Below, one piece after another: positions 2,606-43,610 of a stretch of 64,000 nucleotides of DNA; position 1 is the first letter of the stretch, and each line of letters opens with the position of its first letter. Source of the DNA: Geosiphon pyriformis uo1 (taxonomy: Eukaryota; Fungi; Glomeromycota); the NCBI GenBank assembly GCA_016748015.1, contig JAAOMT010000283.1, positions 376,108-440,107 of the forward strand, written 5' to 3'. The translations under genes and the position numbers were made by a program. Under the pieces are notes generated by a model. It saw only the letters and a list, made by a program, of their open reading frames with translations. It had not been told where the DNA came from and searched no databases.

Positions 2606-3250
2606 ATGAACAATTATTTTCTGGATCAAAATATTCAAAACAACTTCTATACTCTCTATGAGTATTGGATCAAAAACTATCCAAATGCTACTTTAACTAT
2701 TGGAAAACAAACCACCATAACTGATAACAGTAGAACACATACTGTTATTAGATTAAAGAAAACTACTACCAGAAGAGAAAAAATTGGTAGCAAAATAGAT
2801 AAATATCTGTTAGAAAGTATAACAGCAGCTATACTTTCATCTTTCAACACAATTAGAAAAACAATTCAAAAAATCTTACCCATAAACAAAAACTTGTTAT
2901 ATAAAAGGCAATTAGAACTTTATAGTCATCTTGGTAAAATTATAGAGGATATGAAACTCCTAAAAAAAACAACTTCAAAGATACAGGTAGAAATTTTGGG
3001 CATTATAAGGTTAGATGTCTTAAGAATTTTAATTATTTCTAAAAGAGCCAAAACTCTAATATAAAAATTTGGTCTCTTGAATACAAAACTCATTTTATCT
3101 CAAATATTATACATCTTATTCACCAAAAACTTCAATAAACTAGTTAGCTTTGAGTTAAACAAAACCTTTTAAATAGATTATTTCATAAATAGCTTGATTT
3201 TACCAGAGCTCAATCTTTTTAGAAAAAATAATATTATGGTTGAAACTCAT
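2606..3250 (+). pseudogene. Family A ORF3, ~210 aa unknown protein between integrase and 3' LTR
   Basis: ORF 2606-3064 continues past a premature stop into the PPT/LTR; homologous copies start at 37942, 41381 and 61183 (minus). Confidence 0.85.
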
Positions 3251-5167: not shown

Positions 5168-5667
5168 TTTTTTTTTGTTAACATGTAGTTATACCAGTAA
5201 TTTATTAGTTATGTTTACAAAATTGTGGCACTTTTATAAAGCCAGCTTATCCAATAATACAAAAATTACAAGATGTGGCTAACCACAAGCAGAAAGTCTT
5301 AACTATATACTAGTACTATCTTTTTTTTTGTTAACATGTAGCCATACTGATTGTTTATTAGTTTGTCCAACAATATAGTTGACACTTTCATAAAGCCAAC
5401 TTACCAAATAATACAATATTATAAGATGTGACTAATCACAAGTGAAAAGCTCTAACTACATATTAGTACTACCTATGCTACTTAATATATTAAACAGATT
5501 TAATTCATATATCTTACTTATAATGCAAACAAACTTATGACTACTTTTAACAAGATCATTCATCTACTTAACAGTCTGATTAGGATTGAATTTGATACTA
5601 AAAAGTTGATTCTTTCATAATTTCATTATTGTATTAAATATGTTATCATAGACCAAAAAATTTTTAA

Positions 5668-5715
<48 letters not shown>

Positions 5716-7773
5716 CATCTATGTTTTTATCTTCAAATATATTAACAAAACAAACTTTCTCACTTCTCTTTTTGAGATTCACCATTTTTTTTGCAACAAA
5801 AAAACCACAGTATTAACAGCTTTAATTTGGATTGCCATTTCAATCACACTTTCTTTCAAAGCCTTTACCATAACAGCAGAGTAAACAGTAATTTAGTAAT
5901 TAACACAACCAAAGAGCCTATAGGCTCAACTATAAATTTTATTAACAAAAACAGTTCACTAAGATGAATTTTCAAAAAAACCAATCTAGCATTAACAGCA
6001 GCATTTGGACCAGAAGAGACAACAGACAACAGAGATGTTAAAGTTTTGAGAGGAGCACCAAAAACTGGATTTACATCAGCAGTAGCAACAACAAAAAAAA
6101 CCACAAAAACAACAGCTTTGACATAAAATTTAACTTTAACAAAAAATGACTTAAAAACTTTGAGACTACCAGCAGAGTTGAAAGCTACTTTGGGAGAGAA
6201 AGGTGATAACATCTTGTAGTCCACAGCCAAATAATCTAAACCTTAACATCTATAGCAGCAGTAACAACCAAAAGTTTTCTACCAGATATGGCAGCCATAT
6301 AAGATACCAGTCTTTGATACAGCAATGTTTAAAGATTCTAAGAAATCAAAAATAATTACAGCAAAATATTGACATTGGTATGACTTAGAGAAATGAAAAA
6401 TAAAACAAGTATGGCCACCAACTTAAGAGACCAAATCACTAATCTCAAAGACAATACAATCAAAAAAAAAATTGACCAACTTAGCTTTGAAAGCATCTCT
6501 TGAAGTAATAATCTCTTTTTAATTGACTAAAGATAGAATTCTAATACTGTCTTTTCTAACTAGTATTGACCAGTAAATAAGAGCAGCAGCAGCAGAAAAA
6601 GAATTTTTAAATTGAACTATGGCATATTGCCACAAGTCAGCAGACTTCAACTTGACTAAAGTAACAACACCAAAAATACCAAAAGCAGCTATAATGTCAT
6701 TAAAAAAAATACTTAAAAGTACATTATAAAGTGCAATTAACAGAGAAGAAGAAAAAACAAAGGTGACACCAAAAGACCATGGAATATTAAGAGTGGTCAG
6801 AAAAACCTTATTACCAATGGCCACTTTAATAGCACTATTTAGACTTTCCTGAGATGTAAATTTCATACAAAACAACTTAACAACATCTCTTAAAACAGAC
6901 TTAAACCCAATACAACCAGGCAGCAACTGAAACAAAAAACTAAGCAGAGCCATTTTAATCTTAAATATAACACCAAATACTAGATTAGAGATCACTCAAC
7001 CAGAGAATCTTTGATAATTATTCATATTTTTTCAAACACCACTATTAGCAGCACCAAAAACTAGAGAAAGAATAGTTGATTCTATTTTAATCTAATTAGC
7101 CCAATTTTTAAGATTATCTAAATTGATGGACTGTTTTATTTCTGGAATTGGTGATAATCTGCTGGAAAGTATCATATTAGACAACACAGCCAGTGGTTAA
7201 TCTTAGCCCATCTTAAAAGATGTGCTGGCTGCTGTTATGAAAATCTTATCCAAAATTTCATCTAGAATTACAAAGAAGTTTGGTGTAACCATAGCAGTTG
7301 TAAGTGCCAGCTGCTATTTTTTGGAATTTTTTGCTTTTACAGTCATTTGTAAAGCATTAGTAAGAGTAATAAAAGCAGAAAAAACCAACTTATTAATTAG
7401 TCTGTTATTAAAAATTCTTGGGCTCTTAAAAGTAATAAAGACAATACTGGGACTAATTTAAGTATATCTTTTGAAAAAAACTTTGACTGAAAAAGAACTA
7501 TCAGTTAAAGGTAAAAAAATGAACCAGAAGCTGCTAAAGGCAGTTTTTTACTAATATTTTTTAAAAGAAATATAACCAAAATATTTTGTCTAGTTGCTTC
7601 AATAATAGAGAAACTTTCTTATATTAAAACTTTATTAGTTACTATAGAAAAAGTAACATTTGCAACTTTTTTACTCTTAGCTCTAGTCATGATCATAAAA
7701 ATTAGAAGAGAAAAAGTTTTATGCTAATACTATTTTTGCTATCTAATATATTAAATATATTTAATTTATACAT
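5168..7773 (-). mobile_element. ORF1-only poly(A) retroelement (LINE ORF1-like: RRM-like repeats + CCHC knuckle), with duplicated 3' end
   Basis: Degenerate ORF from ATG 7696 to ~5480 (fragments 6519-6995, 5865-6230); T9 tracts at 5168 and 5321 heading a ~153-bp duplication; homologous to 8360-10575. Confidence 0.7.
5669..5716. repeat. (ATT)n microsatellite; poly-Asn on minus strand
   Basis: Directly visible trinucleotide run. Confidence 0.95.
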
Positions 7774-8711: not shown

Positions 8712-10575
8712 TTACTACTACTACTACTACTACTACTACTATTACTACTGTTTCACAAATAGTTATAAAAGCCAAAAATTCTAAAAAACAGCAGCTGGCA
8801 CTTACAACTACTTTGGTGACACCAAATCTCTTTGTGGTTTTAGATGAGATCTTGGATAAGATCTCTATAGTAGCAGCCAGCCTTTTTTCTAATGTGGATG
8901 GCAACAACAGTGGCATGTCTTCCAAGATAAGCCAAGATTAACTACTGGCTGTATTGTCTGATGTGGTATTTTCTAGCAGATTATTACCAATCCCAGAAGC
9001 AAAACAGTCCATCATTTCAGATGATCTCAAAGATTGGGCTGATCAGATAAAAATGGAATCAACTGCTCCTTCTTCAGTTTTGGTGCTGCTAATAGTAATA
9101 CTTGAAAGAATGTAAATAGTCATTAAAGGTTCTCTGGTTGGGTGGCCTCCAATTTAATACCTGGTACTACATTTAAGATCAAGATGGTCCTGCTTAATTC
9201 CTTGTTTCAGTTGCTGCCTGGTTGCATTGGGCTTAAGTCTGTTTCAAAAAATACAATTAAGTTGTTTTGTATGGAATTTACATCTCAGGAGAGTCTAAAT
9301 AGTGCCACCAAAGTAGTCATTGGTGATGAAATTACTCTTAAGATTGCACAGTCTTCTAATGTGGCCTCTGTTTTTTTCTTTTTTTTGTTAGTTGCATTTT
9401 GTAATATACTTTTGAGTACTTTTTCTAATAACATTAAAACTGCTCTTGGCATTTTTGGTGTGGTTATTTCTGTTAAATTAAAGCCTGCTGGCTTATGGCA
9501 ATATGCTGTGGTTTATTTCAAAGACACTTTTTCTACTACTGCTGTTCTTACTTACTGGTCTGTGCTGGTTAAGAAAAACAGTATTAGAATTTTTCTTGTT
9601 ATTAACCAAAATGATGTTATTTTTTCAAAAGATGCTTTTAAAACTAAGTTGGTTAATCTTCTCTTTGGCTTTACTGTCTTTGAGATAAGTGATTTGGTCT
9701 CCCAAGTTGGTGGTCATACATGTTTCATTCTTTGCTCCTCTGAAGCATACTGACATCAACACTTTGCTGTGGTTATCTTTAATTTTTTAGAATTTCTGAA
9801 TGTTGCTGTGTCAAAAACTGGTACCTTGCATGATTGCTGTATCTGGTGGGAAACTCTTGGATGTTACTGTTGCTACAGGTGTCAAAACTTGAATCATTTG
9901 GCTGTAGACTGGAAGATGTTACCTTCTCTCTCACCCAAATTCTTTTCTAACACTTCTGGTGGCCCCAAAGTTTTCAAACCTTTATTTGCTAGATCTAAAT
10001 CTTATGTCAAAGCTGCTGTCTTTGTGGTTTCTCTTGTTGTTGCTGCTGTTGATATGAACTTGGATCTCAGTGATTCTCCCAAAACTACAACATCCATGTT
10101 GTTTGTTGTCTCTTCTGCTCCCAATATTTCTATTGAATCTAGATTGGCTTTTTTGGAATCTTATCTTAGTAAATTGTCTGTGTTGATAAAATTTTTGGTT
10201 GAACTTGTTGGCACTCTAGTTGTATTGGTTACCAAATTGCTGTCTACTCCACCTGCTGTGAATGTGTCAGTTAAGAAAAGTATGACTGGATTGGTTAAGC
10301 AAAATAAAGGCTTGGCTGTTGTTGTTTCCATGATGCAGAAAAGAATAACACATCTTAAGAAAAAATGTAAACAGACCTGCTTGGAGGATCTATTAGATGA
10401 TAATAATATGGTTAATAATGATAATAATAATAATAATAATAAAGATTTTTCAGTCTATAATAACACCTTTGATATTATGATACACCTATGAGAAGATTAG
10501 TCTTCCAGTATCAAATCCAATCCTAATCAGACTGCTAAGTGGATAAGTGGTATGATTAAGAATAGTCATGAGCTT
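8336..10575 (+). mobile_element. Second copy of the LINE ORF1-like element (RRM-like repeats, zinc knuckle, acidic/Asn-rich tail); decayed
   Basis: ORFs 8474-8941, 9142-9753 and 9769-10491 (CYRCQNLNHLAVD knuckle); inverted homolog of 5500-7690. Confidence 0.75.
8678..8749 (+). repeat. (ACT)n microsatellite encoding poly-Thr
   Basis: Directly visible trinucleotide run with two ATT interruptions. Confidence 0.95.
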
Positions 10576-20170: not shown

Positions 20171-21279
20171 TATTTCCAACAACAAACCACTCATTGAATT
20201 AGAAGAAAAAGAAAAAAAACCTACCTGAGAAGCATACCAAGTCTCTTGGGCCAACACTGAACACAATGAGCTATCACTAATACTTTCTTGAAACAATAAA
20301 ACAAAAGGTAAGAAAGAGGACACAACAGAAGAAGACACAACAACTGAAGAAATAACTAGTGGCTGAGAGAGATCCTACTCACATGAGCCATTAAAACAAC
20401 TACCACATATTCCACTCAAATGCCAAGATTGTAACAAGAAACTTTCTTCCATGAAAGCTTGAATCGCACCCAATGAAGATTACTGAATGCGAATTCACTA
20501 TTATTGCAAGCTGTGCCACTAAAAATAATATGGCTATCCAAAACAACAAGGCAAGTGAGACAATGAACTATGTTTCACTTGTGAGGAACAATTACTCAAT
20601 GAAGGAATATGAAACAATATTTCTGGATAAGAAGAAATGTGTGATGCTTCAAGCCAATACACAATCCTTATCAGCAACTGGATAAGTTGTGGAATGTTTA
20701 TTACTGCTGCCTGGCACTGAGCAATCTCTCATTTGAATGGTTATCTACACAATAAAAACAAGATCTGGCAAATAGTAAACACCAAAGTAGAAGGCACTAC
20801 ATCTAGCAAAATATTAGAAATCAAGAACAACTCTCCAGAACCAGTTAACATTGTTCTGATTCCCAACCCAGACATTTTCCTGGACCTGAAAACAGGCCCA
20901 GAAGAATTTTATAAGCACTATCAAAATTTGGCACCAACCAGAGAAGAACAGGAACAGCACTTGGAAGAAATAAACACCCAATTATGTGACCACTGCTTGA
21001 TCCCATGTGACTTCCAGTATTGTAATGAGTGTGACCTTATCTACAATCCACCACCATGCATGATCTACATGATTTTAGAAGAAGACAAGCCAATTAACAA
21101 CTGTGCATTGGAATTGAAATCAATTTTCAATCCCAATTCAAACTCTGACAATGATGATAACAAAAACAATGGTTCCAGCTCTACTCAAAATGACAATGGA
21201 AATAACAACAATTCAGACTCTAATTCAAACTCTGAAACATTTATCACACTTCTTGACCTCACCAAGGAACAAGAATTTA

Positions 21280-21710
21280 AATGGTTCAACAATAATAATG
21301 AAGGTATTATGTCAGAACAGGTGCATGATACTGATGCAGGGTTTGATTTAAGATATTCAGAAAAAGATCCCATCAAATTGGAATCTCATTCGCACACTTG
21401 TATTAATCTCAAAATAGCACTGGAAATTCCAGCAACAATAATGGTACAGTTAGCATTTAGAAGTAGCTTAACAAAAAAAAGAATCAACATCAGAGGAGGA
21501 ATAATTGACACAAGATACATAGGAAATATCATTGCTATGCTACAAAATAACTTAAAAAAAGCCTACACCATAGATCCAAATAAAAAGATAGCACAGGTAA
21601 TATTCCTATCTCTGGTTAAGGTAGCTCAATTAGTATTAGTAAAAAACAGAGAAGAATTAAGATAACAGTAAGAGAGATACAAAGATTTGAGTTCATAGGT
21701 AAAATAGATG
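21280..21710 (+). pseudogene. dut: dUTPase domain in family C pol
   Basis: Motifs AGFDL, RSSL, GGIID.RYIGNI, KIAQVIF and a decayed motif 5. Confidence 0.9.
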
Positions 21711-24993: not shown

Positions 24994-25618
24994 ATGGAAA
25001 TTACTAACAACATTCACTCACTAGCACAACAACTCTTCCAACTGATTCAACAACAGAATATAGAAATTACTATTAATTAACAAACCATTCAATACCGAGA
25101 TACCAGAAAGATACCCAAATACAAAAGTCAAAAAAAAACAGAAAACACTATAAATAAAATGGTTCTGAAAATAAAATTAGCAATAGAAGAACCAACAAGT
25201 GTTACCATATATCAAGAGTTGACCAAAGAAACTTGGAAATAGTGGATACACAAATTTCCAAAGAACTTTTGTTATTTTCACTTGGGAGACACTTGAATAT
25301 TCAGAACTTATACACAGATAAAACAAAACAATTATTTAACACAACAATACTGCAACAACTGGAACAATTTGTGGAAAAAAACAATTTGACTACACAAGCA
25401 AGAGTTATCTATCAGCTACATATAGAATTCTAAGACAGACTGGAAATCTTACTTAATTCAGAATTGAACTCCATTACAGTTAATCAAATGGGAAAAATAA
25501 CCAACACCCAATTTAAGAAATTACAGAACAAAATAACCCAAGTAATTCTCGAAAAAGAAGTTCAAAAAATACTCAACAACAGAGAATTAGAGTTAGGAGA
25601 TTTAGGAGATTTTGATGG
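24994..25618 (+). pseudogene. Family C ORF3, cut by an LTR B insertion
   Basis: ATG 24994 MEITNNIHSLAQQLFQLI...; fragments 25233-25433 and 25464-25618. Confidence 0.8.
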
Positions 25619-25816
25619 TGTTACTAGAGGTTTTTGGTCTCTTTTCTTAAATGTTGTTGATGTTTGTTTGCTGTGAATTCACGTTTCTGGATGTGGTTGA
25701 ACCTCCAGTAACTGAATTTATCTTCAAATTATCTCCTATAATTTGAACTGCTGGGCTTATAAGTGGAATGGCCAATTCCGTGCCAGTTGCTTGTGTAGTT
25801 ATGTTGTAGTAAATGT
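25619..25816 (-). repeat. Partial family B LTR into which another family B element inserted
   Basis: 198-bp duplicate of 25817-26014. Confidence 0.88.
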
Positions 25817-26809
25817 TGTTACTGGAGGTTTTTGGTCTCTTTTCTTGAATGTTGTTAATGTCTGTTTGTTGTGAATTCACGTTTTCTAAAAGTAGTTAAA
25901 CCTCCAATAACTGAATTTATCTTCAAATTATCTCCTATAATTTGAACTGCTGGGCTTATAAGTGGAATGGCCAATTCTATGCCAGTTACTTTATGTAGTT
26001 ATGTTGTAGTAAACATCAACTCTTTTCCAGAAATTGCTCATCTGGAAGCTTACTAAAATGTATAGTTACTTTGCTGTGAAAGTCAACTCTTCTACAGGAA
26101 TCTTGTCTGTAGACTACCCTAATGATTGTAATAAGAAAAAAAAAGAAAAATAAAAGAAATGTAAAAGAAATAGAATTTTTGTCAAGAAAAACGTTTTCTA
26201 TCCAGGCCTGAAGTCACTAACAGTTTACTGAAATTGGTAGCTAATCAATTTCGAAATGTTAGTTGGGTTTTGGAAATTTTCCAAGTACAATAATTAAAAA
26301 ATTTGGTTTTTTCAAATTATTTGATATTTATTTCTTTTTGTGTGTATAGGAACGGTTTTAAGAGATAAATCTAAAGTAAGATACATTTTCCAGAAGAGAA
26401 AAGCTCTTCTTTTATACAACTTGTTGTAGTACTAGTCTATGAACTTGCACTTTTTCTCTTTGCTCAAATTTCAGCAAACTAAAGATACATTTTGATGAAC
26501 TACAAGTTATTTTGCTAAACTATTGATTAATTTGGGTGAACTATTCATAATTTCGGCAAATTTCTGTAAATTTCGGCGAATTTCTTATAAATTTTGGCGA
26601 ATTTTTGAATGTTACAAAGTTCAGAGTATTGTGTAATTTGATCATCCTACTTTCTGTAATACTAATTAGATTATTTTAATTAAATCATGATATGTGATAA
26701 TTGATTAAATAATAAATGATAATTTGAAATGATATTAATATACTAATGAATTATAGGAATTATAAGGGTAATTTCATGCTAATTAATAGCTAAAATTCTA
26801 CTGGTAACA
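25817..26809 (-). repeat. Family B 3' LTR
   Basis: TG..CA termini; near copy of 34743-35693. Confidence 0.95.
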
Positions 26810-27497
26810 TAATTTCTTCCTCAAGACTGAGCTCCATCGAAATCCAAGCACTATCTGTAATATTAAAATAGTAATCTAAAATAATTGAAATAATTTGGTC
26901 TGAAAATTGTTGAAATTTCAGTTCTGTGAGTTTGCCAATGTATTGGACTTTCATTGGTTGCAGTATTGAATTTTGTAGAACATTTTCACAAGTATTAAAC
27001 AAGTCATAGAGTCTAAGAGCTGCTCTAAGTCTGTAGCGAGTGTTTGTTGGTCCAGCTGCTGTTTTGAATTCATTGTGGATTTGTTTTTGTATAACTTCAG
27101 AAGTGAGATTTGTTGCTTCAAGTTTCTGTTTTCGTTCATAAAGTGTTTTTCCAATTTGAAAGTATTTATAAATAGGGATGTGTTCATTGTTCTGTTCATT
27201 AAGAAGTAGTAGAAGTTTTTGTTGCATTGTAGCATTTGGTGAAATGTCAATAGGGGCAATTAAAAGATTTTTTTCTAGTGCCTGCTTCAAAAGTCTTGGT
27301 AATCTATTCTCAGAGTGACTTCTTGTTTTTCTTCTATAGGAGTAATAGTTCTGTAAATGATTTGCTACTGGGGCTGTGGTTTCTTTCTGAATGTAATTAA
27401 TTTGACTTCCATTAATCGTTATAGATAAGTCAGAGAGTGTTTTTAAGGCTAACATTAATTTTTGGGATATTTGTTGAATATTTCGGGGAATAATCAT
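26790..27497 (-). CDS. Family B ORF3, 235 aa, uninterrupted, unknown function
   Basis: Complete ATG-to-stop ORF after integrase, overlapping the PPT and LTR start. Confidence 0.8.
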   Translation of the reverse strand: MIIPRNIQQISQKLMLALKTLSDLSITINGSQINYIQKETTAPVANHLQNYYSYRRKTRSHSENRLPRLLKQALEKNLLIAPIDISPNATMQQKLLLLLNEQNNEHIPIYKYFQIGKTLYERKQKLEATNLTSEVIQKQIHNEFKTAAGPTNTRYRLRAALRLYDLFNTCENVLQNSILQPMKVQYIGKLTELKFQQFSDQIISIILDYYFNITDSAWISMELSLEEEIMLPVEF

Positions 27498-27644
27498 GAT
27501 AAAATTGACTAATTATGAAAAGAGAGAATAAAGAAAATTATTTTTGGATATGGGGTTTTTATTTGTTTTTGGGTTTGGGTGTTTTGTAATTATTTACTAT
27601 TTTTGTCTTTGTGTTTTTATTAAAGAATTATTGTAAAATTTAAG

Positions 27645-29016
27645 TGTTCAAGTTTGGTTGTTGTTCTATTATAATTATTGGTTCTAAATTTTGGGGAATA
27701 TCTTCAGGATTAATTAAAGAGGAATGTGTACCAATTTGTGGAATTAATGGTTCAGGATTGTTTCTGGAATAATAGTGTTTCAATTTGTCTCCATGTGCAA
27801 TTTTTGCTAGTACTTTGTCATCAAGTCTTAACTTATATGATTTATTGCCTAGAATTTCGTGAATATAAAATGGTCCATCTCATTTGTTTTCAAATTTCCC
27901 ATTCCATTGTTTTTCAGCCTTAGTTCTGTGTAAGAGAACTTTATTTCTAACTTTAAATTCGTTGGTAATAGGTGGTAATTTGTTGTCATGTCTTTTTTTT
28001 TGTTGAGCTTGGAAATGTTCAATATGAGTTGCTGCTATTCTTCTTTTTCCTTCCAGTGTACTAAGAAGAGTGTAGGCTCTTCTTTGGAGTGTCTCTTGAA
28101 AGTTTTCTTCATTGATTGGTTGCACTGGGTATGTTTCCACTGTGAAATTAATTGGTAATGTTGCTGTCTTTCTATAAGTAAGATCAAATGGTGTGTGTTT
28201 CGTAGTATCTTGTTTTAGTGTTCTGTATGCTAGTAACATTGATGGAATAAAGATATCCCATTCCTGCTCAAAGTCTGTTGAGACTTTGGCTAAAGATTCA
28301 CACAATGTTCTGTTGAAATGTTCTACAAGTTCATTTGTTTGAGGGTGATAAGGTGATAATAGAAGTCTTTTGACATTGAACTGTTCACAAATTTCTTGTA
28401 TCAAGTTGTTCACAAAATGTGTTCTTTGATCAGATAAAAGTTCAATTGGGCATCCATGTCTACAGATAATGTCTTCATAGATGAAATTTGCTACTGATTT
28501 TGCATCTGCTCTTTGGATGGTTTTAGCTTTAGGCCATTTGGTAAGATAATCCATTGCAACTGCAATATAACAATTTTTTTGGGTTGTAATAAGTAATGGT
28601 CTGACTAAATCAATTCCAACTCTGTCAAAAGGTTGTCCAACTTTGATTGGATTTAAAGGTTCTGTGGGGCGAGTTCCTTCTCTTCTTTGACAATTATCAC
28701 AAGATTCTACATATTGTTGAATGTTTTTTTGCATGTGAGGCCAAAAATAATGTTCAAGGGTTCTTTGAATTATTCCCTTTTTTCCCAAGTGTGCTAAAGA
28801 CGGATCTGTATGCATGTTGTATAAAATTGTTTCTTTTTTATTCTCTTGTACTAATCTGAATGGTTTTCTGTGATTTTTATAATAGATTTTGTTCTGGTGT
28901 ATAAAATATTGTTTTGATTGGTGTTGTAAGTGGTGTTTTTCACTTGGAGACCAGTTTTCTGGCATGGTAAGAGTCTCTAAATAATTTTTAAGATTGCTGT
29001 AGTTTCTGGAATTCAT
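27645..29016 (-). pseudogene. Family B integrase
   Basis: ORF 27880-29016 (H..AHLG, CDNC, VGIDLV, LSDQ, PQTN.LVE); GPF tail lies after a stop. Confidence 0.95.
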
Positions 29017-29073
29017 TCTTGTTTGGTTATTTTGTTGGTAAGTTGGTAAGTTGTGGTGGAATTGTTGTTGGTA

Positions 29074-30450
29074 TTAATCTTGTCTCATTCTTGAGAGGCT
29101 ATCAATATTGGTATGTAGTTTTCCTGGTTTGTGATGTACAATATATCTGTAGTCTGCTAGGAAGTCATTCCATCGAGACTGTTTGGCACTTTGTTCAGTT
29201 TTCTTTTTATTGAGCCATTTGAGGCCAATGTTGTCTGTTATTATGTCAAATTCTTTTCTATTCTTCAGATATTGTTGAAAATGTTTAAGAGCCCAAATAA
29301 CTGCAGCAGCTTCTAATTCAGTTGAGCCATATTTGAGTTCTGTTGGCTTGAGTGTTCTGCTGGCATAGGCAATAACTTGTTTTTGGCTATTTTCATCCAA
29401 TTGTGATAAGATGGCACCAAATGCTATGTGTGAGGCATCAGTGGCTAATTGGAATCGTTTGTTGAAGTCTGGGTAAGTAAGAACTGGAGCTGTTGTCAAT
29501 TTTGTTTTGAGAATTTCAAAAGCTTTTTGTTGTTTTTCAGTCCATTTGTATGGTACATTTTTGTTGGTAAGATAATTGAGTGGTTTGGCAATTTCTGAGA
29601 ATTCTTTTATTAATTTTTGATAGTAAGAGGCTAATCTCACAAATCCTCTTAGTTCTGTAGTATTTCTGGGGATTTGAAAGTTTTTGACAGCACTGTTTGT
29701 TTCTGGATTTGGTTTGATTCTATCTTTACTAACTATGTGTCCAAGAAAGATCAAGCTTGTTTTTTCAAAGTGACATTTCTCAATATTTAACTTTAATCTT
29801 GCTTTCTATAATCATTGAAAAACTTCTCGCAGGTTAATGAAATGGGCTTTAAAGCTTGGTGAGTATACATCAGTATTATCAAGATAAACAATTACTAATT
29901 GTCACAAGAGCCCTTCATAGACAACATCTATGAGTCGCTGAAATGTTGCTGGTGCATTGCAGAGTTTAAAAGGCATAACATTAAACTCATAATTTTCTCC
30001 TTGAGTGGTGAATGCTGTTTTGGGTCTATCTTTTGGGTCCATTTCGACTTGCCAGTATCCACTTTCCAGATCTAAAGTTGAAAAGAACTTGGCTTTTCCT
30101 AGAGCATCTAGCATGTCATCAATTCTTGGAAGAGGATAGGCATCTCCAATTGTAACACTATTCAGTTGTCTATAATCAACACAGAATCTGATTTTTCCAT
30201 TTTTCTTTTTAACTAAAACTACTGGTGAGGCCCAAGGACTTTTTGATGGTTGAATCAATCTGTTATTGAGCATTTTTTGGACCTCTTCTCTGATGAATTG
30301 GTGGCTGGCAGATGGCACTTGATAAGCTTGTTGATGTTTTGGTAGAGCATTTCTTGTATGGATCTGATGTTAAACAATGTCTGTTTTTCCCAAGTTATTG
30401 TTGTCTTTTGCAAATATATCTGCAAATTCAGCTATCAATTGTTTCAATTG
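29074..30450 (-). pseudogene. pol: Family B RT + RNase H
   Basis: ORFs 29902-30318 (SPWASPVVLV, FCVDYR, LDLESGYWQ) and 29074-29754 (TDAS, ITD, DSLSR). Confidence 0.95.
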
Positions 30451-30919
30451 TCTTTGTTGTTAAGATTCTAAGGGACCCATATTGATTCGAGAGAGTTTTT
30501 CTTCCAACAAGTGGTAGTTTTCAGTAGTGAGAATGATATTTGGATTTGGGAGTAGAGTGTGCTTTACAATTTCGATGAAATTAGAAACAATTTGAGGGTT
30601 TTTATCTTAAAAGATATTGCTGTGTATGATTCCAATTTCTAATTTGTTTAATAAAACAATAGGGTAATTATTGGGGTTGTAGAATGTAACTTGAAATTTT
30701 TTCATTCCTTTGGGAATATAAACGTTTAGAATTGATATTTCATGCTTCAAACAGATTTGTTCATTGGATTCAAAGATTTGTTGTGTAGTGGTGGGTTTTG
30801 AGCAAGTGTAAATTTTGTGATGTTCTCCAAAAGATGAAATGATAATTGGCTGAGGAAGTTGAAGAATCTGGTGAGATTTATTTTGTGTATTAAGAACTAT
30901 GTTTACTGGGACTGTAAAT

Positions 30920-31350
30920 CGTCCAGTTGAACCAAAACCTTGAGTTTCTCTTTTACTTTTTCCCAATTGTTCTCTGTTGTTTACTGATTGTAAACCCGAA
31001 ATGTTGATTAAGGGTAAGTAAATTGCTTGAGCAATTTTTTCAGCATGTTCAATTTTGAATGGTTTGTCTGTCTCATTCTGTAACATAATGGTAATGTCTC
31101 CAATGTATCTTGCATCTATAACTCCTCTTCTAATATTGATTCTTTTGCTTGCCAATGATGATCTGGAGACAATTTAAATCATTGCTCCTGGTGGAATTTC
31201 AAGAGCAATTTTGAGATTGATTTTTGTCAAAGACTTTGGTTGGAGAATCAAAATATCTTTTTCTGAGTATCTTAGGTCATATCTAGCATCAATTTCGTGT
31301 GCTTTTTCTGGTCTGATTCCTTGGTCATGATTGTCAAAATATTTAAGTTG
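30920..31350 (-). pseudogene. dut: dUTPase domain in family B pol
   Basis: DA.YDL, RSSLA, GVIDA.YIGDI, KIAQAI and R..QGFGSTG motifs. Confidence 0.92.
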
Positions 31351-32289
31351 TAGAGGTGGTTGCTTTTCAAGAAGATAAATGGGAGTGATTGGTAGTTCTT
31401 CTACTAGTTCAGATATTCCAAATTCGATTTCATTTTCATCATTTTCATCTGACAGAAGAATGCTAAGAACATAACATTCTAAACACCATTGGTTATTACA
31501 AGGCATAACACATTTTTCACACAATTGAATGTTCATTTGCTCTAATTGTTGAATTTGAGCTTCTTTGATCGGATATGTGTGGCTTACAATTTGGTGGTAG
31601 GTTTCTATTTCATCTTCATAATCAAATCCAGCTAATTCCATGGTATACTCAATGTATTTAGCTTCTTTCATTTGGCGGATATCTTTTTAGGTGGCTCCAT
31701 TGATCAATGCCATTGCTAGGTCAAAAATTATTTCAGCATCATGAGGATAGTGGTAAAGTTTATTGAGAGCACTGTTGTATGCTGCATCAAATGGTGTTCT
31801 TCTTCTGACTTTTTCCGAAATTAATAAAGTATATTGACAGGTTTGATCACATACTCCTTTTCTTATTGCTACATCAATCCAATTGCATTCTTCTGGTAGC
31901 ATTTTTCCATATGTAAGGCAAGGTGTGTTGTCCTATTTTCCACTTCTTTTTGGAGATCCAAATCGTTTTCTATGGCATGCTTTGCAAAAGTAACAGGTAC
32001 GAGTTTCATATTTCTCTTCTGGAGAAATATATGCTCCCATTGATGAAAGTTTTTTGTTGCAATCTTTGCATTTGAATGAAATATAGGGTGGTTGTTTCTG
32101 TGGTTCTGGTGTAGAATATCTAACTTTCTTCCATCCCCTTGATTCTTCAAAAATCTCTTGTTCAGTCTCTTCAGCCCAATTGGATGTTGATCCAAAAGCC
32201 ATGTAGGTTTCAGTAAGTGGTATTTCTTTTTCCTTTTCAAATTCAAATACTGGAGCTTTTTCTGATTGTTTGTTAAAGGTACCACAGGT

Positions 32290-32700
32290 TGCAGGTACTA
32301 TGGTATATTGTCCTTAGTATGAGATTTTAAGTTCTTGAGTTTCCCAGTTCAGGTTTGCATTGGCCTTGAGAAGCCAATCATTTCCGACTAAAGCTTAGTA
32401 TTGGAGTGCATCCATAACAAGAACTTTAACTGGAATGATGATTTCATCAATTGAAAAAAGGAAATCATCAATTTCTCCTACTGGAGTCTTCTTCATATCA
32501 TCAGTTGTAACAATAACTGTTTGAACTGGTCTGTCTACATTTTGTTTGAGTTGTTGCATCAGCTGGTAAGTGATAATACTTCCAGCTGATTCACTATCTA
32601 AGATTAAGTAAATGGGTTTTCCTTCCACTGTAGCTTCTGTGTACATAGCAGTAATTGTTTTTTGTTCATTGACTGCTGCATTACTAAGCAGAAATGGTGA
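32290..32700 (-). pseudogene. Retropepsin, family B
   Basis: LILDS(G)SAGSII in ORF 32395-32802. Confidence 0.88.
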
Positions 32701-32799
32701 TTTATTTGCTTTAAATTTAAATGGAAATATATCTGACAGATTAGCATTTTGGGCAATTTGAGCTGGTGGAATGGTGTGGTTGGAAGGGTTTGATCTTAG

Positions 32800-34806
32800 C
32801 ACTGCAACTTTATTTTCAAAAAGTGCAGTTTGTTGAAAATCCGATTTCTCTGGTATTGTAAGATAACTGAGTTGAGTGTGATAGTAATTGGGTCTTTGCT
32901 AACCCGAATTTTGGGGAACCAACTGGTTATTTGGATTAATTCTGTTGTGGTTATTTTGCAATTGATTTTGGGGTGTGAATTGGTTATGTTAAACCAATCT
33001 TCTTGCTGATACTTGATATTGTTGAGTGGATGGTGTTTGATATGGCTGAATTGGTAAAGGTTGCTGATATTGTTGCTGTATTGATTGTGGAGCTGGTGGA
33101 TAGTAGTTTTGATTTTGTGGTCTTGGTGAATAATAGGTTGGTGGTGGAGATTGGTAATAGGATTGTTGTGGTAAAGAGTAACATTGATTACTCCTATTTT
33201 GTTGGTTTCTTTGCAATTTCCTACAATCTCATTTCTAGTGTTCTGGAATTCCACAATAATGACAATTTTGAGATTGGTTGTTGGATGGTAATCCAAAATT
33301 GTTTTGGTTGCATTGTTATGGTGGTTAATATCTTTGTGGTTGTTGCTGCTGTTGTTGTTGGTTTGTAAAATAGCTTTCAACTTTCTTTGTGAGTTGGTCT
33401 ATTTTTTCTTTAGCTGCTAAGCTGGTTTCTTCAATTGCAAGGTTTACAAGCTTGGTGTGATTTGCTTCTTCCATTGCCATTTCATAGCTCTTTGCATGTC
33501 TAATAGCAGTTGCTAAGTCTGCTGGAGCATGTAAATAGACTTTCTTAATCAGTTTGTTTTTTAATCCTGCTATAAACTAATCCAGAATTTGAGCATTAGA
33601 ATAGTAGTCATTGGTTTTCAATTGTTGGATTTGTCTGAGAAGTTTGTTAAATTTTCCAAGATAGATCATAACAGTTTCAGATGTTTCTTGTTTGATATTG
33701 TGAAAGTGGTTTCTGAGAGTGATAGAGGTATTGTTGTCAGTGAATTGTTGTAGAAAAGCATTTTTGAATGCTTGCCAGTTTTCAAATGGTTCTTCTAAAT
33801 TTTCAAACCATTCTCCTGCTGTTCCTTGGAGAAAGTAAAAAATTACTTTAAGCATTTTTGCTGCAATCCAACCATTTGCATCTCCTGTTTTTTGAACTTT
33901 GTCAAGCCATTCTTGAGGACTGGTATCATTATTTTCACCCATGAATTCTGGAATCTTTGCAATGTAAGCAGTTGCCATTTCCTCTTTATTTTCTGTGGCT
34001 TTTCTTTGTTCTGATTCAATTTCTTTATTTTCCAAATTTTTTAAATGATCACTTTTGTTTTTCTGCAAGTATTCAATAATATTGGTGCTTGTTGATATAA
34101 GTTCCTGCTGTTGAGTAGAATTTCTAGGTGACTGAAAATTTTCTGGTCTGAAAAAACAGTTAAGTGGTGAATTTAGTGTTTGTGGTCGAGCAAGTAAAAT
34201 TGGAAATGGTATGATAAAAAGTGGTAATTTGACACTAGTTCTTTGTTCAGATGTTTGCAAGTGTTTGGCAGTTGTCTTTGGTAGTATTCGAGTGTTTGGA
34301 GTGGTTTTTGAGTGTTGTTTCACTTTTTGTTTGCTTTTGTTGCCTGTTTCTGTTTCTAATTTAAAGTCAAAAGAGTATTTAGACTGTACTGGGTATTTTT
34401 CTTCACAATACTTGATAATGTTGTAATTGAGTTCTTGAAAGTAGGTGGCAAGTATTTCACTGTTAAGGTCTTCAGTTCCCAATCATAAATAGTGTATTAG
34501 ATTATTGTAGAGGTTGCTTTTCACTTCTGAAATGTTGTAATTTCTAAGAAGATAATTGTTGATACAGTTTTTAATATATTGGTAGAGTGTTCTTTCAACA
34601 ATTTCAATTCCATCTGGGATGTTGAATCTCTGCTTGCAATGAGTGTAAATTGACTGATAATACTCTAGAGTTGTTGTGTCTGGTGTGGTCGCCACTTTGA
34701 AGTTTGTTGTTTGCTGTGTTATTTCTGTGAGAAAGCACCAAATGTTATCAGAGGTTTTTGGTCTCTTTTTTTGAATGTTGTAACTGTCTGTTGGTTGCAA
34801 ATTCAC
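32800..34806 (-). pseudogene. gag: Family B gag with long N-terminal extension and Q/N/P-rich tail
   Basis: ORFs 34483-34806 and 33577-34482 (MATAYIAKIPEF.GE..EWL); CHYCG knuckle near 33260. Confidence 0.85.
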
Positions 34807-35693
34807 GTTTTCTAGAAATAGTTAAACCTCCAATAACTGAATTTATCTTCAAATTATCTCCTATAATTTGAATTGCTGAGCTTATAAGTGGAATGGCCAA
34901 TTCTTTGCCAGTTACTTTATGTAGTTATGTTGTAGTAAATGTCAACTCTTTCCCAGAAATTGCTCATCTGGAAGCTCACTAAAAATGTGTAGTTATTTTG
35001 CTGTGAAAGTCAACTCTTCTACAGAAATCTTGTCTGTAGGCTACCCTAATAATTGTAATAAGAAAAAAAAAGAAAAATAAAAGAAATGTAAAAGAAATAG
35101 AATTTTTGTCAAGAAAAACGTTTTCTATCTAGGCCTGGAGTCACTAACAGTTTACTGAAATTGGTAGCTAATCAATTTCAAAATGTTAATTGGGTTTGGG
35201 GATTTTCCAAGTGCAATAATTAAAGAATTTGGTTTTTTCGAATTATTTGATATTTATTTCTTTTTTTGTGTATAAGAATGGTCCTAAGTGATAAATCTAA
35301 AGTAAGATACATTTTCTTGAAGAAAAAAGCTCTTCTTTTATACAACTTGTTGTAGTACTAGTCTATGAACTTGCACTTTTTCTCTTTGCTCAAATTTTGG
35401 CAAACTAAAGATACATTTTGATAAATTACAAGTTATTTTGCTGAATTATCGATTAATTTGGATGAACTATTCATAATTTCGGCGAATTTTAGAATGTTAC
35501 AAAGTTTAGGGTATTGTGTAATTTGATCATCTTACTTTCTGTTATACTAATTGGATTATTAATTGAATTGTGATATGTGATAAATTGATTAAATAATAAG
35601 TAATAATTTGGATTAATATTAACATGTTAATTACTGATAGGAATTATAAGGATAATTTCATGCTAATTAATAGCTAAAATTCTATTGGTAACA
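34743..35693 (-). repeat. Family B 5' LTR
   Basis: TG..CA termini; PBS TGGTGCTTTCT adjacent. Confidence 0.95.
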
Positions 35694-38600
35694 ATGCTTA
35701 ATGAACAAAGTATTTGAATTAATAAAAGAAAACTTTGTTCTGGTTTACTTAAATGACATAATGGTTTACTCAAAAACCTAAAATGAACATCTTAAACACT
35801 TGTAAAAGATTTTTGATCTGTTCAGAAATGCTGGCCTTAAAATTAACCCAATTAAATTTTTTTTTGAACACCAATCCACCCAGTTTCTTGGTCATCTTAT
35901 TACAAAAGATGAAATCTTCTCTAATCCAGTTAAAGTTAAAAAAGTTGAGAACATTAGACAACCAATGAATGTTCCTAAACTACACTTTTTTCTTGGTTTG
36001 GTCTTCTACTATCACAAATTTATCAAGGATTTCTTCAAAATCGCCTTTTTTCTCAATCAGCTACTCAGAAAAAATGTCAATTATTATTGGGACACTCATC
36101 AACAAAAAGTTTTTGAAATTTTGAAGAAAAAACTTGTTACTAAACCAATTCTCAAGACTTCTAATCTAGACCAACTTTTTATCCTCCACACTAATACATC
36201 TGGCTATGGACTTGATGCTGTCTTTTTACAGAAAAATAAAAATGGCAGAGAACATGCCATAGCATATGCCAGTAGATTTCTTACACCAGCAGAAAAAAAC
36301 TATTCAGTTACTGAACAAAAATGTTTAGCAGTAGTTTGGGCTATTAGTTACTAGGATCAATAATTTTGGTGCAAAATTCTTAGTGATAACAGATCATTAA
36401 GCCTTGGTTTGGCTGCACAATAAAAAAAAACTGGAACACAAACAAATAACCTGCTGGATACTTCATTTGGATAAATTTAACTATGATATTCAATACTACA
36501 AAAGAGCAAATTATTAAAATGCCAATATTCTCTCTAGACTCACCATCTAGTAACAGTACAAGCTTCTTAAACCAAACTATCTTAATTATTAGTAACTCCT
36601 CTTTTTGACAAACACAATAATGGACTTGAACAACTACTCTGCCTTAATAGAATTTTTGAGTAAAAGACAATACTCACAAGAATACACTTGACAGCAAAAA
36701 GAACATTTGTGCAAACAATCAAATTTCTATTTAATCCACCAGAACCAGTTATATAAAAGAAACAGAAAAGATTCTAACTGCTCCCAAAGAGTCATCAGAT
36801 TTGAAGAAAGAGAAATTGTAATATACAACATCTACACTAATCTATTAGCTGAACACTTTGGAAAAACAAAAACAATTCAGAAAACTTTAACTCACTATTA
36901 TTGGCCTATCTTGAGAAAAAACATTGCTAAATATATCAAAGCCTGTAACATTTGCCAAAAAAGATACAAACCCAATCACAAAAAAGATATTCAACCAATC
37001 TCTGTTGGTCAACTATTTAACAGAATTGGTATAGATATTATTAGATCTTTAATAATAACTCCTAATGACAACAGATACATTATTACAGCTACTGACTATC
37101 TTACAAAGTGAGTAGAAACAAGAGCCACTTTTGATCAAACAACAGTCTCAATAGCCAATTTCATTTATAAAAATATTATTTGCCATTATAGCTGCCCCAA
37201 AGAACTTTTATCTAATAGAGAAAGCAGAAAAATGGAAATATGTTATAAACTTTCCTCTCCTTACCACCCTTAAACAAATGACCTAGTGGAATGTTTTAAT
37301 AGAACACTATGTGAAACTCTAGCCAAAACCAGTGAAAAAACAAACTTATGAAACAAAGTACTGTCTTCAGCTTTGTTTGCTTATAGAACTGTAAATCATG
37401 ACATAACAAGTTATGAATTTTTTTATCTGCTCTATGAATGCATAGAAACACTACTAATAAAAACTAATATTGAAACAATACTTTTTGAAAAAATCACAAT
37501 AAGAAATTACAAAGACATTTTGCAAAAAAGACTTGGCACTATTTTTGACTCCTTGGTAGAAGCACAAATAATTGCTTTTAAAAAGATAAAACAGTTCCAA
37601 GAAAAGCTTAAGAAAAAAAAAACCTATAAAATACTTTTTTTAAGTGTTGGTGACTTGGTACTAGAATACTGTTTAGACAGAGACAATGTTTATGATAATA
37701 AATTCTCTAGCCAATAGAAAGAACTCTTTATAGTCAACAAAGTTTTGAACAATGGTTCTTATATTCTTTAAAATCAATCTGGAACAATCTTCAATGATCG
37801 TCCTATTTATGGTACACAACTCAAGAAATATCATAAACGACCTGATTGGTTGCCTATTGTGGTAATACTGACCTAAATAATCAGCAAAAATCAAGTATAA
37901 ATAAATACATCATTCCCAAAACAGAGGTATTTTCAATCGATATGAACAATTATTTTCTGAATCAAAACATTCAAAACAGCTTCTATACTCTTCATTAATA
38001 TTGAATCAAAAACTATCCAAATGCTACTCTGATTATTGGAAAACAAACCACCATAACTGATAACAGTAGAACACATACTGTTATTAGACCAAAGAAAATT
38101 ACTACCAGAAGAAAAAAAATTGGTAGCAAAATGAATAAATATCTGTTGGAAAGTATAACAGCAGCTATACTCTCATCTTCCAACACAATTAGAAAAACAC
38201 TCTAAGAAATCTTACCTATAGACAAAAACTTGTCATATGGAAAGTAATTAGAACTCTATAGTTATCTTGGAGAAATCATAGAAAATATAAAACTTATAAA
38301 GAAAACAACTTCAGAGATACAAGCAGAAATTTTGGGCATTATATAATTAGATGTCCCAAGAGTTTTAACTATTGCTAGAAGAGCCAAAACTCTAATACAA
38401 AGATTTGGTCTCTTGAATATAAAACTTATTTTATCTCAATTATTATATACTCTATTTACAAAAGACTTCAACAAACTAGTTAGCTTTGAGTTAAATAAAA
38501 CTCTTTAAATAGATTACACTATGAATAGCTTGATTTTACTGGAGCTCAATCTCTTTGGAAAGGATAATATTATGATTGAAACTTATATTTCTTATTAATT

Positions 38601-39259: not shown

Positions 39260-42200
39260 GTATACTCAAAAACTTGAGATAAACATCTTGAACACTTGCA
39301 AAAAGTTTTTGATCTGCTCAAAAATGCTGGTTTTAAGATAAACCCAATTAAATCTTTTTTTGAACATTAATCCACCCAGTTTCTTGGTCATCTTATTACA
39401 AAAAATAGAATTTTCTCTGATCCAGTTAAGGTTAAAAAAGTCCAGAACATTAGACAATCAATAAATGTTTCTGAACTATGCTCTTTTCTTAGTTTGGCTT
39501 TTTATTATTATAAATTTATCAAAAATTTTTCCAAAATCACTTTTTCTCTCAATCAGTTATTTGAAAAAAATGTCAATTACTACTGGAGCACTTATTAACA
39601 AAAAGCTTTTGAAATTCTGAAGGAAAAACTTTTTACCAAACCAATTCTTAAACAACTTAATCTGGACCAACTTTTTATCTTCCACATTAATATATTGGGC
39701 TATAGACTTGGTACTGTTTTCTCACAAAAAAATGAAAATGGCAGAAAACATGTTATAGCATATGCCAATAGATCTTTCACACCAGCAGAAAAAAACTATT
39801 CAGTAACTAAACAAGAATGCTTAGCAATAGTTTGGGCTACTAGTTACTGGAACCAATATCTTTTTGGTGTAAAATTCTTAGTAGTAACAGATCATTAAGG
39901 CTTGGTTTGACTGCACAATAAAAAGAATCTGGAACACAAATAAATAACTTGCTAAATACTTCACTTAGATAAATTTGACTATGATATTCAACACCACAAA
40001 GAAGCAAATCATCAAAACACTGACACTCTCTCTAAACTTATTATTCAATAACAGTACAAGCTTCTCTAATTAACTCACCTTAATTATTAGTAACTCTTTT
40101 TTGACAAAACACAATAATGGACTTGAACAACTATTCTGCCTTAATAAAATTTTTGAGTAAAGAACAATACCCACCAGAATACACTCAACAGCAAAGAGAA
40201 CATTTGTACAAACAATCAAATTTCTATTTAATCTGCCAGAACCAATTATATAAAAGAAACAGAAAAGATCTTGACTATTCTCAGAGAGTTATTAAATTTG
40301 AAGAAAGAAAAATTGTAATATACAATATGTACACTGACCCATTAGCTGAACATTTTGGAAAAACAAAAACAATTCAGAAAACTTTAGCTTGCTATTATTG
40401 GTCTACTTTAAGAAAAAACATTGCTAATTACATTAAAACCTGTGACATCTGCCAAAAAAGAGACAAATCCAATCTCTGTTGATCAACTATTTGACAGAAT
40501 TGGTATAGATGTTGTTGGACTTTTAACAATAACTCTTGATGACAACAAACACATTATCACAGCTACTGACTATCTTACAAAGTGGGTAGAAGCAAGAGCC
40601 ACTTCAGACCAAACAGCAGTCTCAATAGCCAACTTCATATATAAAGATATTATCTGCCATCATGGCTGCTCTAAAGAACTTTTATCTGATAGAAAAAGAG
40701 CTTTTCTCAGTACACTGGTTCAAAAACTTTGTAGAAAAATAGAAATACGTTATAAACTTTTTTCTTCTTATTACCTTCAAACAAATTTATAAGACAAAGT
40801 ACTGCCTTCAGCTTTGTTTGCTTATAGAACTGTAAATTATAACATAACAAATTATAAATCTTTTTATCTGTTCTATAAACACATGACAACACTACCAATA
40901 GAAACTAACATTGAGACAATACTCTTTAAAAAGATCACAATAAGAAATTACAAAGACATTTTGCAAAAAAGACTTGGTACTATTCTTGACTTCTTGGTAA
41001 AAGCACAAATAATTGCTTTTGAAAAAATAAAACAATTCCAAGAAAAGCTTAAAAAAAAAAACCTATAAAATACTTTTTTTAAGTGTTGATAACTTAGTAT
41101 TAGAATACCATTCAGACAGAGACAATATTTATGGTGATAAATTTTCTAGTCAGTAGAAAGGATCTTTTATAATTAACAAAGTTTTGAACAATGATTTTTA
41201 TATTCTTTAAGATTAATCTGGAACAATCTTCAATAATTGTTCTGTTTATGATACACAACTTAAGAAATATTATAAATGACTTGATTGGTTGTCTGTTGTG
41301 GTAATATCGACCCAAATAATCAGCAAAAATTAAGTATAAATAAATGCATTATTCCCAAAACAGAGGTATCTTCAATCAACATGAATAATTATTTTCTGGA
41401 TCAAAACATTCAAAATGCCTTCTATACTCTCTATAAGTATTGAATCAAAAATTATCCAAATGCTACTTTGATTATTGGAAAACAAACCACCATAACTAAT
41501 AATAATAGAACACATACTGTTATTAAACCAAAGAAAACCACTACCAAAAGAGAAAGAATTGGTAACAAAATAGATAAATATCTGTTAGAAAATATAACAG
41601 CAGCTATACTTCCACCTTCCAACACAATTGGAAAAACAATTCAAGAAATCTTGCCCATAGACAAAAATTTGTTATATGAAAGGCAATTAAAACTTTATGG
41701 TAATCTTGATAAAATTATAAAGAATATAAAACTTATAAAAAAAACAATCTCAGAGATACAGACAGAAATTTTGGGCATTATATGATTAGATGTTTTAAGA
41801 GTTTTAACTATTGCTAAAAAAGCCAAAACTCTAATACAAAGATTTGGTTTCTTGAATACAAAACTCATTTTGTCTCAAATATTATACACTTTATCTACCA
41901 AAGACTTTAATAAATTAGTTAGTTTTGAATTAGACAAAACTTTTTAAATAGATTATCTCATGAATAGCTTGATTTTGCCAAAGCTCAATTTCTTTGAAAA
42001 GAATAATGTTATGATTAAAACTCATACTTTTTATTAATTATCATATGTATTAGCCACTGATGTCATATAATTAGCCACTCTATTTTTAGAAAGTGATTAT
42101 TAACTTGATCAATGATCTGATTATTAATCTGATCATTAATCTAATCATTAATTTGATCATTAACCTAATCATTGATCTGATTATTGACTTAGTCATTGAC

Positions 42201-43610
42201 CTGATTATTAACCACTTTTGATAGCTATATAAACAATGAATTTCTTAGCTGTAAAAAAGCATGTAAGAATTAAAGAAAGAAAATAAATAAAATAACAACT
42301 TTCATCTTAATTATTTTTTTATCACTAATTTTTCTTTCCCTACTTTCAAGTATCCAAACATCTTGGAATAAAAGATTACTTGTTGGTTATTCTCTATCTT
42401 TTTCCTGAAATGTGCAATTGTAGTATTTGAGGATTATTGAATAAAATGTAATTAAAAAGTATATTTGATACCTAATATTGAATTTTAAGAGTGCCAACAT
42501 GAGGCATAAAATTATACCAGTATTACAGATGACAATTTTCAGTGTTGGATTAAATAACAAACCTGTAATTTGGTGCTCAAAGCTATTCTTGTTGTTGAGG
42601 ATCTGAAGGTTTGGTATCTGAAGATTTTGTATCCGAAGAGTTTAGTTGAGTTCTTTGTATAATGGACAGAGATTCAATGATAATAGTTTTATCCATAGCT
42701 TCCCAAAACCACAGTTTTGTCAATTTTTTTCTCAGCTTGATGGCTGGTATTCCTCTTGGTAAGCTATCCTTAATTGAGTGTTCTACTCTTATTTCTGGGT
42801 CTTTTACCAGTCACGTTTATCCTGATATCAGTGCCCTATGCGTTAATCCTCAATAGAATTAGTAACAACAATAAAATCAAAGCAAAAAATAAAGAAAAAA
42901 AAAAGGAAATAAAGAAAGAAAAAAAATAAGCCAAGGTAATTTGCAAGTTAGTATTCCATCAATAGCCATGATTAAGAGCTATTGTTCCAGTGTGGTTAAG
43001 TGCCAATTATTATTAACATGAAGTGTTAATAGTGGAAATGGATTTGAGATAACAAATAGTTATTTATTAAATAATTGTGGTAATTAAGCTAAGAATTCTT
43101 CATGTTTATTCTGTTTTTTCTGCTTTTAATGCTACTGCTATATATATATATTTGAGATTTCTCAATTCCTCAATTTTTTGTGACAGGAATCCTGCAATTT
43201 CTGATAAGAGGAATTCTGGAATTCTGGAATCCTGCGATTCCTTGTCAGAGAATCTTGAAATTCCTGGAATTCTGCAATTCCTCTAAGAGGAATTTTGGAA
43301 TTTCACATTTACTACATTTATATTTGATTGGCTAATATCTACTGACTAATAATACTATATTTTCTATATTCTATGAGTAATACCAGTGTATAATTATTTG
43401 TTGACAATATAGACTATTCCTCTATCTTCAGATTCTCTGGTTATCTTTTGAAAAGTATAGGACTAAGATATTTTATGAGATTGATCTTGTACATTAAATC
43501 CATACTCATTTAATTTGCTCTTTAAAGTTGAATTTTCTTTGATTTTTTTTATCATCTTACAATTCTGTTCTCCCTTGCTATCTGTTAGCTTGTTACTCCA
43601 ACCTATAATA
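39260..43610 (+). mobile_element. Family A copy 3 (RT from VYSKT, RNase H, integrase, ORF3 from 41381, LTR 42007-43610 containing a solo LTR C)
   Basis: Collinear with 397-4750; small internal deletions in integrase. Confidence 0.94.
42521..43382 (-). mobile_element. Family C solo LTR (type C2) with TSD CCAG
   Basis: CCAG at 42517-42520 and 43383-43386; LTR A resumes after it. Confidence 0.9.

Follow-up and report, generated by a model that had tools for sequence, protein, structure and literature searches.

The Ty3/Gypsy elements of Geosiphon pyriformis carry a third open reading frame (ORF3), located between the integrase and the 3′ LTR, whose product represents a real, undescribed accessory protein family. 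The slot that it occupies is a known one, and additional ORFs are no novelty in themselves. The window, i.e., the whole stretch of 64,000 nucleotides analyzed here (strain uo1, contig JAAOMT010000283.1, GC content of 30.6%), contains elements of three families, A, B, and C. A sense ORF lies between the integrase and the 3′ LTR in all six copies of the window as well as in a metagenome contig, L001. The six copies were all located where the original prediction had placed them, and every one begins with an ATG of its own, some 65 to 150 nt past the integrase stop codon. The features used below are as follows (window coordinates).

2606 to 3262, plus strand: ORF3 of family A, copy 1 (A1); 218 codons with 2 internal stops, extending into the LTR
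24994 to 25618, plus strand: ORF3 of family C; decayed, with 3 stops and one frameshift near codon 98
25817 to 26809, minus strand: 3′ LTR of element B; 993 bp, 88% identity to the 5′ LTR of B
26790 to 27497, minus strand: ORF3 of family B; 235 amino acids, intact (start at 27497, 235 codons, 0 stops), final 20 nt within the 3′ LTR
26810 to 26848, minus strand: pre-LTR DNA motif and polypurine tract (PPT), read through by B ORF3
27640 to 33978, minus strand: gag-pol of element B in a single frame (gag, protease, dUTPase, RT, RNase H, and integrase); 20 stops
34743 to 35693, minus strand: 5′ LTR of element B, after which comes a PBS-like TGG stretch
37942 to 38598, plus strand: ORF3 of family A, copy 2 (A2); 218 codons with 6 internal stops
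41381 to 42037, plus strand: ORF3 of family A, copy 3 (A3); 218 codons with 3 internal stops
60650 to 61183, minus strand: ORF3 of family A, copy 4 (A4); 177 codons after internal deletions, 2 stops

Architecture of the elements

Element B lies on the minus strand and is complete, with two LTRs and one gag-pol frame that has a dUTPase ahead of the RT and is followed by ORF3. The order of gag, protease (PR), RT, RNase H (RH), and integrase (IN) between two LTRs, together with the PBS and the PPT, identifies it as Ty3/Gypsy; gag and integrase were assigned with Pfam, and PR, RT, and RH by reading the translation. No chromodomain was seen by inspection at the end of the integrase (GPF/SH3-like). 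The dUTPase of B lies between protease and RT at approximately 30900 to 31300 (minus strand), and another was found upstream of the RT of C at 21060 to 21665 (plus strand). Among fungal Gypsy elements, a dUTPase is a known but uncommon feature. Element B is bordered by the end of the C ORF3 on one side and by the pol of an A element on the other (window 25615 to 26013 and 35693). The LTR end shows a 199-bp tandem duplication, and a clean target-site duplication is absent; recombination between two B insertions, or else a join made in assembly, is the probable origin of this element.

The reading frames of A and B both traverse the PPT into the start of the LTR, as had been proposed, ending about 35 nt (A) and 20 nt (B) inside it, while the C ORF3 is truncated at about position 25618 by B-type LTR sequence. 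The LTRs of the families had been described as unrelated, which holds for A versus B (no blastn match at an E value of ≤1e−3); no LTR could be assigned to C, and the comparison covers A and B. Less significance can be given to the intact state of the B copy, which the original prediction had singled out. The 20 stops in the 2,112 codons of gag-pol leave a probability of 0.11 of finding none in 235 codons by chance, and the same gag-pol contains stop-free runs of 397 and 243 codons. A TATA-like stretch precedes the ORF3 ATG by 46 nt in A (four of four copies) and by 41 nt in C, and B has a pyrimidine tract and an AG 11 nt before its ATG, but such matches are common in 70% AT DNA.

Other repeats were detected in the window. 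The LTRs of family A contain a 12-bp tandem array (3319 to 3436, 42094 to 42211, and 60486 to 60588), with hairpins predicted in one copy (z of −5.3). An inverted pair of 1.9 kb with 73.5% identity (5531 to 7371 and 8734 to 10575) probably corresponds to two copies of another mobile element. Two long Ser/Pro-rich ORFs at 47840 to 50352 (minus strand) resemble exons of a host gene, the last of them with an end that we take to be like the KA1 domain of MARK/Kin1 kinases.

Homology and extent of the ORF3 family

Judged by profile alignment, the ORF3 proteins of B and C are homologous along their entire length (hhalign E value of 1.2e−5 and probability of 81% over 175 columns that reach from the N-terminal to the final helix, using 36 B and 22 C rows). 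The motif LFSLG formerly ascribed to C had been read in the wrong frame; intact C proteins have YF(H/Y)LGQH, which is closer to B. Searches with B ORF3 gave 204 homologous proteins at an E value of ≤1e−3 among 616 candidates, and the 120 matches listed comprised 119 hypothetical proteins of G. pyriformis and the window's own. Similarly, 110 of the 161 candidates matched A and 46 of the 55 matched the C piece, all of them named as G. pyriformis hypothetical proteins.

A joint B+C profile compared to 1.84 billion representatives retrieved 114 matches, mostly fragments of B or C and fused gene models, although it also reached the subfamilies D, G, and H and three metagenome proteins (P0312, P0316, and P0379). 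The origin of 10 matches was looked up; 7 were from G. pyriformis, and the other 3 were these metagenome proteins. The diversity of ORF3 amounts to at least six Geosiphon subfamilies plus three metagenome types. In a tree of 16 rows (4 fragments omitted and family A not included), C, D, G, and H grouped together (99/99), and long branches led to the metagenome rows. No relative of the B integrase or of P0316 was found in viral contigs, nor was any relative found in phage records. In the Atlas, the top clusters for B ORF3 were unnamed Mucoromycota proteins (0.93 and 0.92), at a recognition below the reliable level. Public gene models (P0227 and many of the B+C profile matches) join pieces of ORF3 to gag, integrase, dUTPase, or the ORF3 of other families; such models are probably chimeras that annotation created from nested elements.

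Similarity at the C-terminal tails had been counted as protein homology, but the tails reflect a DNA motif just before the PPT that is common to A, B, and L001, with its first part also in C (window 26810 to 26848 on the minus strand, window 3185 to 3230, and L001 3085 to 3123). L001 matches window 26841 to 26803 at 85% over 39 nt (blastn). The motif is translated as EL(S/N)L..E in B, A, P0312, and P0316, and the end of the C proteins, DFDGAQY, is the DNA of B read in a different frame. In A, B, E, and F, part of the acidic tail is encoded by the purine-rich PPT, and that of G is not acidic. Tails encoded by shared DNA are no evidence of protein homology, and they were trimmed before the whole-length tests described below. 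The motif itself is conserved although the LTRs of A and B are unrelated, and it folded no better than shuffled sequences in all five correct windows. It might act in cis in plus-strand priming or in packaging.

Position of family A

Whether A belongs with B and C depends on the kind of test applied. Local comparisons favor an unrelated origin: hhalign gave E values of 0.29 against B, 0.26 against C, and 0.41 against the wide family, hmmsearch yielded 0 to 4 bits (at most 3.9, with shuffles up to 9.9), no pure A protein appeared among the 114 matches of the B+C profile, and the top Atlas clusters differ from those of B. However, in a semiglobal alignment of the family profile to A over its whole length, with tails removed, the score was 99.8, against 62.8 ± 7.5 for column shuffles and 65.8 ± 7.7 for shuffles of 10-residue blocks, and it was reached by none of 700 shuffles of either type. 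Single A proteins (n = 22) had a median score of 102.8 (range, 87 to 115), above all control windows, of which 246 were bacterial (maximum, 92.9) and 55 came from gag-pol (maximum, 93.4). The z value remained at 3.0 to 5.5 across four gap settings, although C versus A alone stayed at noise level (z about 1). The motifs are collinear, with the N-terminal half and the LY..LG motif in register and the last third a few residues off the by-eye register. Altogether, the A ORF3 is probably a distant member of the family, and an independent origin appears rather improbable. The homology of the three ORFs, as first proposed from alignment by eye, thus stood for B and C in profile alignments, and for A it is made probable by the whole-length test only, the local ones being negative.

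Inheritance and selection

The 3.7-kb contig L001 carries RT-RH-IN with two stops followed by an intact ORF3 gene, that of P0316, whose frame crosses the motif and the PPT into TGTTAC as in B. Its layout (RT-RH-IN-ORF3-PPT-LTR) is the same as that of the window elements. Integrase identity to B falls from L001 (57%) to C (52%) and A (40%), and ORF3 identity follows the same order (31%, 23%, and 21%, the value for A being at noise level), which fits a descent of ORF3 together with pol. Open homologous frames persist at 23 to 37% identity. These comparisons suggest that ORF3 has been inherited vertically under selection.

A dN/dS check was run on the four A copies of the window with a context-matched null; plain pN/pS was dropped, since it is biased by transitions. 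Among their private changes, 45 of 121 were synonymous versus 36 expected (omega of about 0.7; P = 0.03 to 0.04), with omega values of 1.2 to 1.6 in shifted frames and 0.57 to 0.60 in RT/RH. There was no synonymous excess in the shared changes or in either of the two integrase segments used as controls, and the excess in the A ORF3 frame is a weak, if favorable, sign of selection. The idea of an ancestral soluble accessory protein of this lineage, whose divergence tracks that of the integrase and which lacks env features, is supported for B and C and is probable for A.

Protein features and predicted structure

The proteins examined agree with the expectation of a soluble product, as neither a signal peptide nor a transmembrane segment was indicated in five of five by hydropathy, the only property used (maximum over 19 residues of 0.27 to 1.61; the stretch with the highest value, in the A ORF3, includes D and R). 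Their isoelectric points are basic (8.9 to 9.4 in all five), and the cysteines, 0 to 2 per protein, are not conserved. A model built from 36 diverse rows reached a pLDDT of 74.6 and a pTM of 0.63. In this model, a helix (residues 5 to 19) and a beta-hairpin (24 to 37) are followed by a disordered basic linker of low confidence (40 to 62) and by helices at 66 to 76, 91 to 99, 108 to 127, 133 to 148, and 153 to 167, after which come two short helices and finally a long one that begins at residue 192. The blocks from 81 to 210 score 78 to 95 and form the predicted helical core. Residues conserved across subfamilies are Y110, Y112, G116, G149, K150, N152, A159, R162, F167, N185, G188, and F195, giving as core motifs YxYxxxG116, G149-K-x-N152, and R162; many are aromatic or aliphatic, and the conserved polar ones are basic. 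An earlier model from B-only rows was poor (pLDDT of 47.9), and its Foldseek search was meaningless.

As anticipated, no characterized env or known domain matched ORF3 in Pfam, PDB, or viral structure searches. Pfam had no family near the cutoff for B or A ORF3 nor for eight family members, and over 36 members the matches were only scattered; an SH3 match among the latter derives from integrase fused into a gene model. The 36-row profile had no PDB sequence match at an E value of ≤10. With the second model, of which mainly the part past residue 75 was compared, Foldseek matches were at noise level (best E values of 0.34 in PDB and 0.13 in the viral BFVD), and VIA was at noise level too (best Z of 5.3). 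No clear helix-turn-helix row was present in VIA, and the TetR-type rows of Foldseek had E values of 0.4 or worse.

A weak lead toward a known domain was DUF1016_N (PF17761, the N-terminal helical domain of YhcG), chosen after a Pfam E value of 0.12 in one of eight proteins and then compared, as a 44-sequence profile, to ORF3 residues 108 to 171 (hhalign P of 0.003, above 100 of 100 block shuffles, but a probability of only 11%). The two agree in register over 61 columns, each with a YxxIG helix, a second helix, a Gly turn, and a third helix that closes with F/Y. However, scores were 12.9 bits for P0043 and 11 to 14 for B with the 44-sequence profile, short of the Pfam gathering cutoff of 32.8, family A gave a P of 0.35, and the whole-length test did not set the domain apart from controls. 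DUF1016_N is bacterial and fused to a predicted nuclease, which it precedes as a helical domain (PMC1189080). Two further domains were discarded or minor: for DUF6192, a low Atlas row for A and B, one sequence gave E values of 0.88 and 0.69, and DUF3102 had only one subthreshold match in 37 genomes.

Possible functions of ORF3

We tentatively favor a role for ORF3 as a nuclear, nucleic acid-binding regulator of its own element, from the predicted model and by analogy. On this view, a single Gypsy lineage with a dUTPase would have conserved ORF3 as an accessory gene passed on together with pol, and the encoded protein, helical and soluble, would bind nucleic acid in the nucleus and regulate the expression or export of the element's own RNA. 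Nuclear entry might be signaled by the basic linker (40 to 62), contact with DNA or RNA might be made by the pair of helices flanking G149-N152, and the gene may have its own subgenomic transcript. The solubility, the basic charge, the conserved G-K-x-N turn and arginine, and the analogy with CERV (see below) all point in this direction, although the reading is weakened by the fact that no known DNA- or RNA-binding fold was matched, and the basic pI counts less because it is common in AT-rich genes. Alternatively, in line with the targeting or anti-silencing factor of the original prediction, ORF3 could be a protein-binding adaptor that tethers the integrase or preintegration complex to chromatin or blocks host silencing proteins; this is the main competing view. 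The B integrase has no visible chromodomain, so that targeting could come in trans, the conserved core is rich in aromatic or aliphatic residues, and the VIA rows include chromatin-related bundles (CHD1 C-terminal domain and Orc6, both with a Z of 5.1, noise level). But these structural matches are not significant, and the basic nature of the conserved polar residues fits nucleic acid at least as well; we hold the adaptor to be somewhat unlikely.

Geosiphon belongs to a coenocytic host group, and ORF3 might act there as a particle-associated helper that chaperones virus-like particles or moves them between nuclei in the hyphae, with no membrane fusion. This would suit the env position and the conservation across the lineage, and comparable functions have been suggested for the sense ORFs of plants (PMC7264820), but neither a structural-protein fold nor a signal peptide or amphipathic membrane anchor turned up, and we consider it improbable. 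Even less credit is due to the view that the ORF3s are unselected by-products of the 3′ region, alike through helical pattern, AT-rich composition, and the shared PPT motif, which fails for B and C, where homologous frames stay open at 23 to 31% identity. A degenerate env or small fusogen agrees in position and strand only; with no transmembrane or signal stretch, few and unconserved cysteines, and no viral fold match, this reading is very improbable and largely refuted.

The preferred regulator can be extended to a broader proposal, which is doubtful as a whole: in Glomeromycotina-type Gypsy elements, family A included, ORF3 would be an old, lineage-defining gene encoding an undescribed nucleic acid-binding helical fold remotely akin to DUF1016_N, a Rev- or Tas-like regulator made from a subgenomic transcript.

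Relation to known elements and significance

The original prediction took env as the canonical extra gene at this position, which was overstated, since non-env ORFs have been published there from plant and rotifer elements and from those of some fungi (PMC7264820, PMC5408684, and PMC2864245). The sense additional ORFs of Ty3/Gypsy elements (PMC7264820) resemble ORF3 in their location between pol and the 3′ LTR, their strand, their presence in most copies of a family, and their unknown function. However, the plant ones are env-like, some with transmembrane segments, whereas the Geosiphon ORF3 has none and matches no family. LTR retrotransposons of bdelloid rotifers (PMC5408684) share with B an ORF3 after the integrase and a dUTPase between protease and RT, and some of their ORF3s have 210 to 230 amino acids. 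The rotifer ORF3s are DEDDy exonucleases, GDSL esterases, or membrane proteins that were acquired in repeated captures, while the Geosiphon ORF3 matches no enzyme and follows the vertical descent of pol. For fungal Gypsy elements, PMC2864245 mentions an “add. ORF” of unknown function and, in one family, a dUTPase between PR and RT. That paper concerns chromoviruses, and the dUTPase elements that it names are from basidiomycetes and ascomycetes; the likeness to ORF3 is by description and not by sequence. Our working analogue is CERV of the Caenorhabditis elegans element Cer1, a nuclear, non-env protein that is encoded by the element and handles that element's RNA (PMC10309623). CERV is made from a spliced mRNA and its function has been shown, whereas that of ORF3 is only inferred, and the likeness proposed here is one of role. 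Among the titles and abstracts listed in searches of the openly accessible literature, including work on Glomeromycota LTR retrotransposons, none described the ORF3 family.

An immediate consequence is that several hundred gene models annotated as hypothetical proteins are explained as transposon genes (at least 204 clusters for B, 110 for A, and 46 for C). The intact metagenome copy is a usable natural sequence for biochemistry. LTR elements make up 41.2% of the G. pyriformis genome (PMC11952901). If the Rev- or Tas-like proposal were true, these fungal elements would be “complex” retroelements, which would help to account for the expansion of LTR elements in Geosiphon. As a third gene that has been retained throughout this radiation, ORF3 is a candidate for the means by which the elements stay active or escape silencing in a multinucleate fungus.
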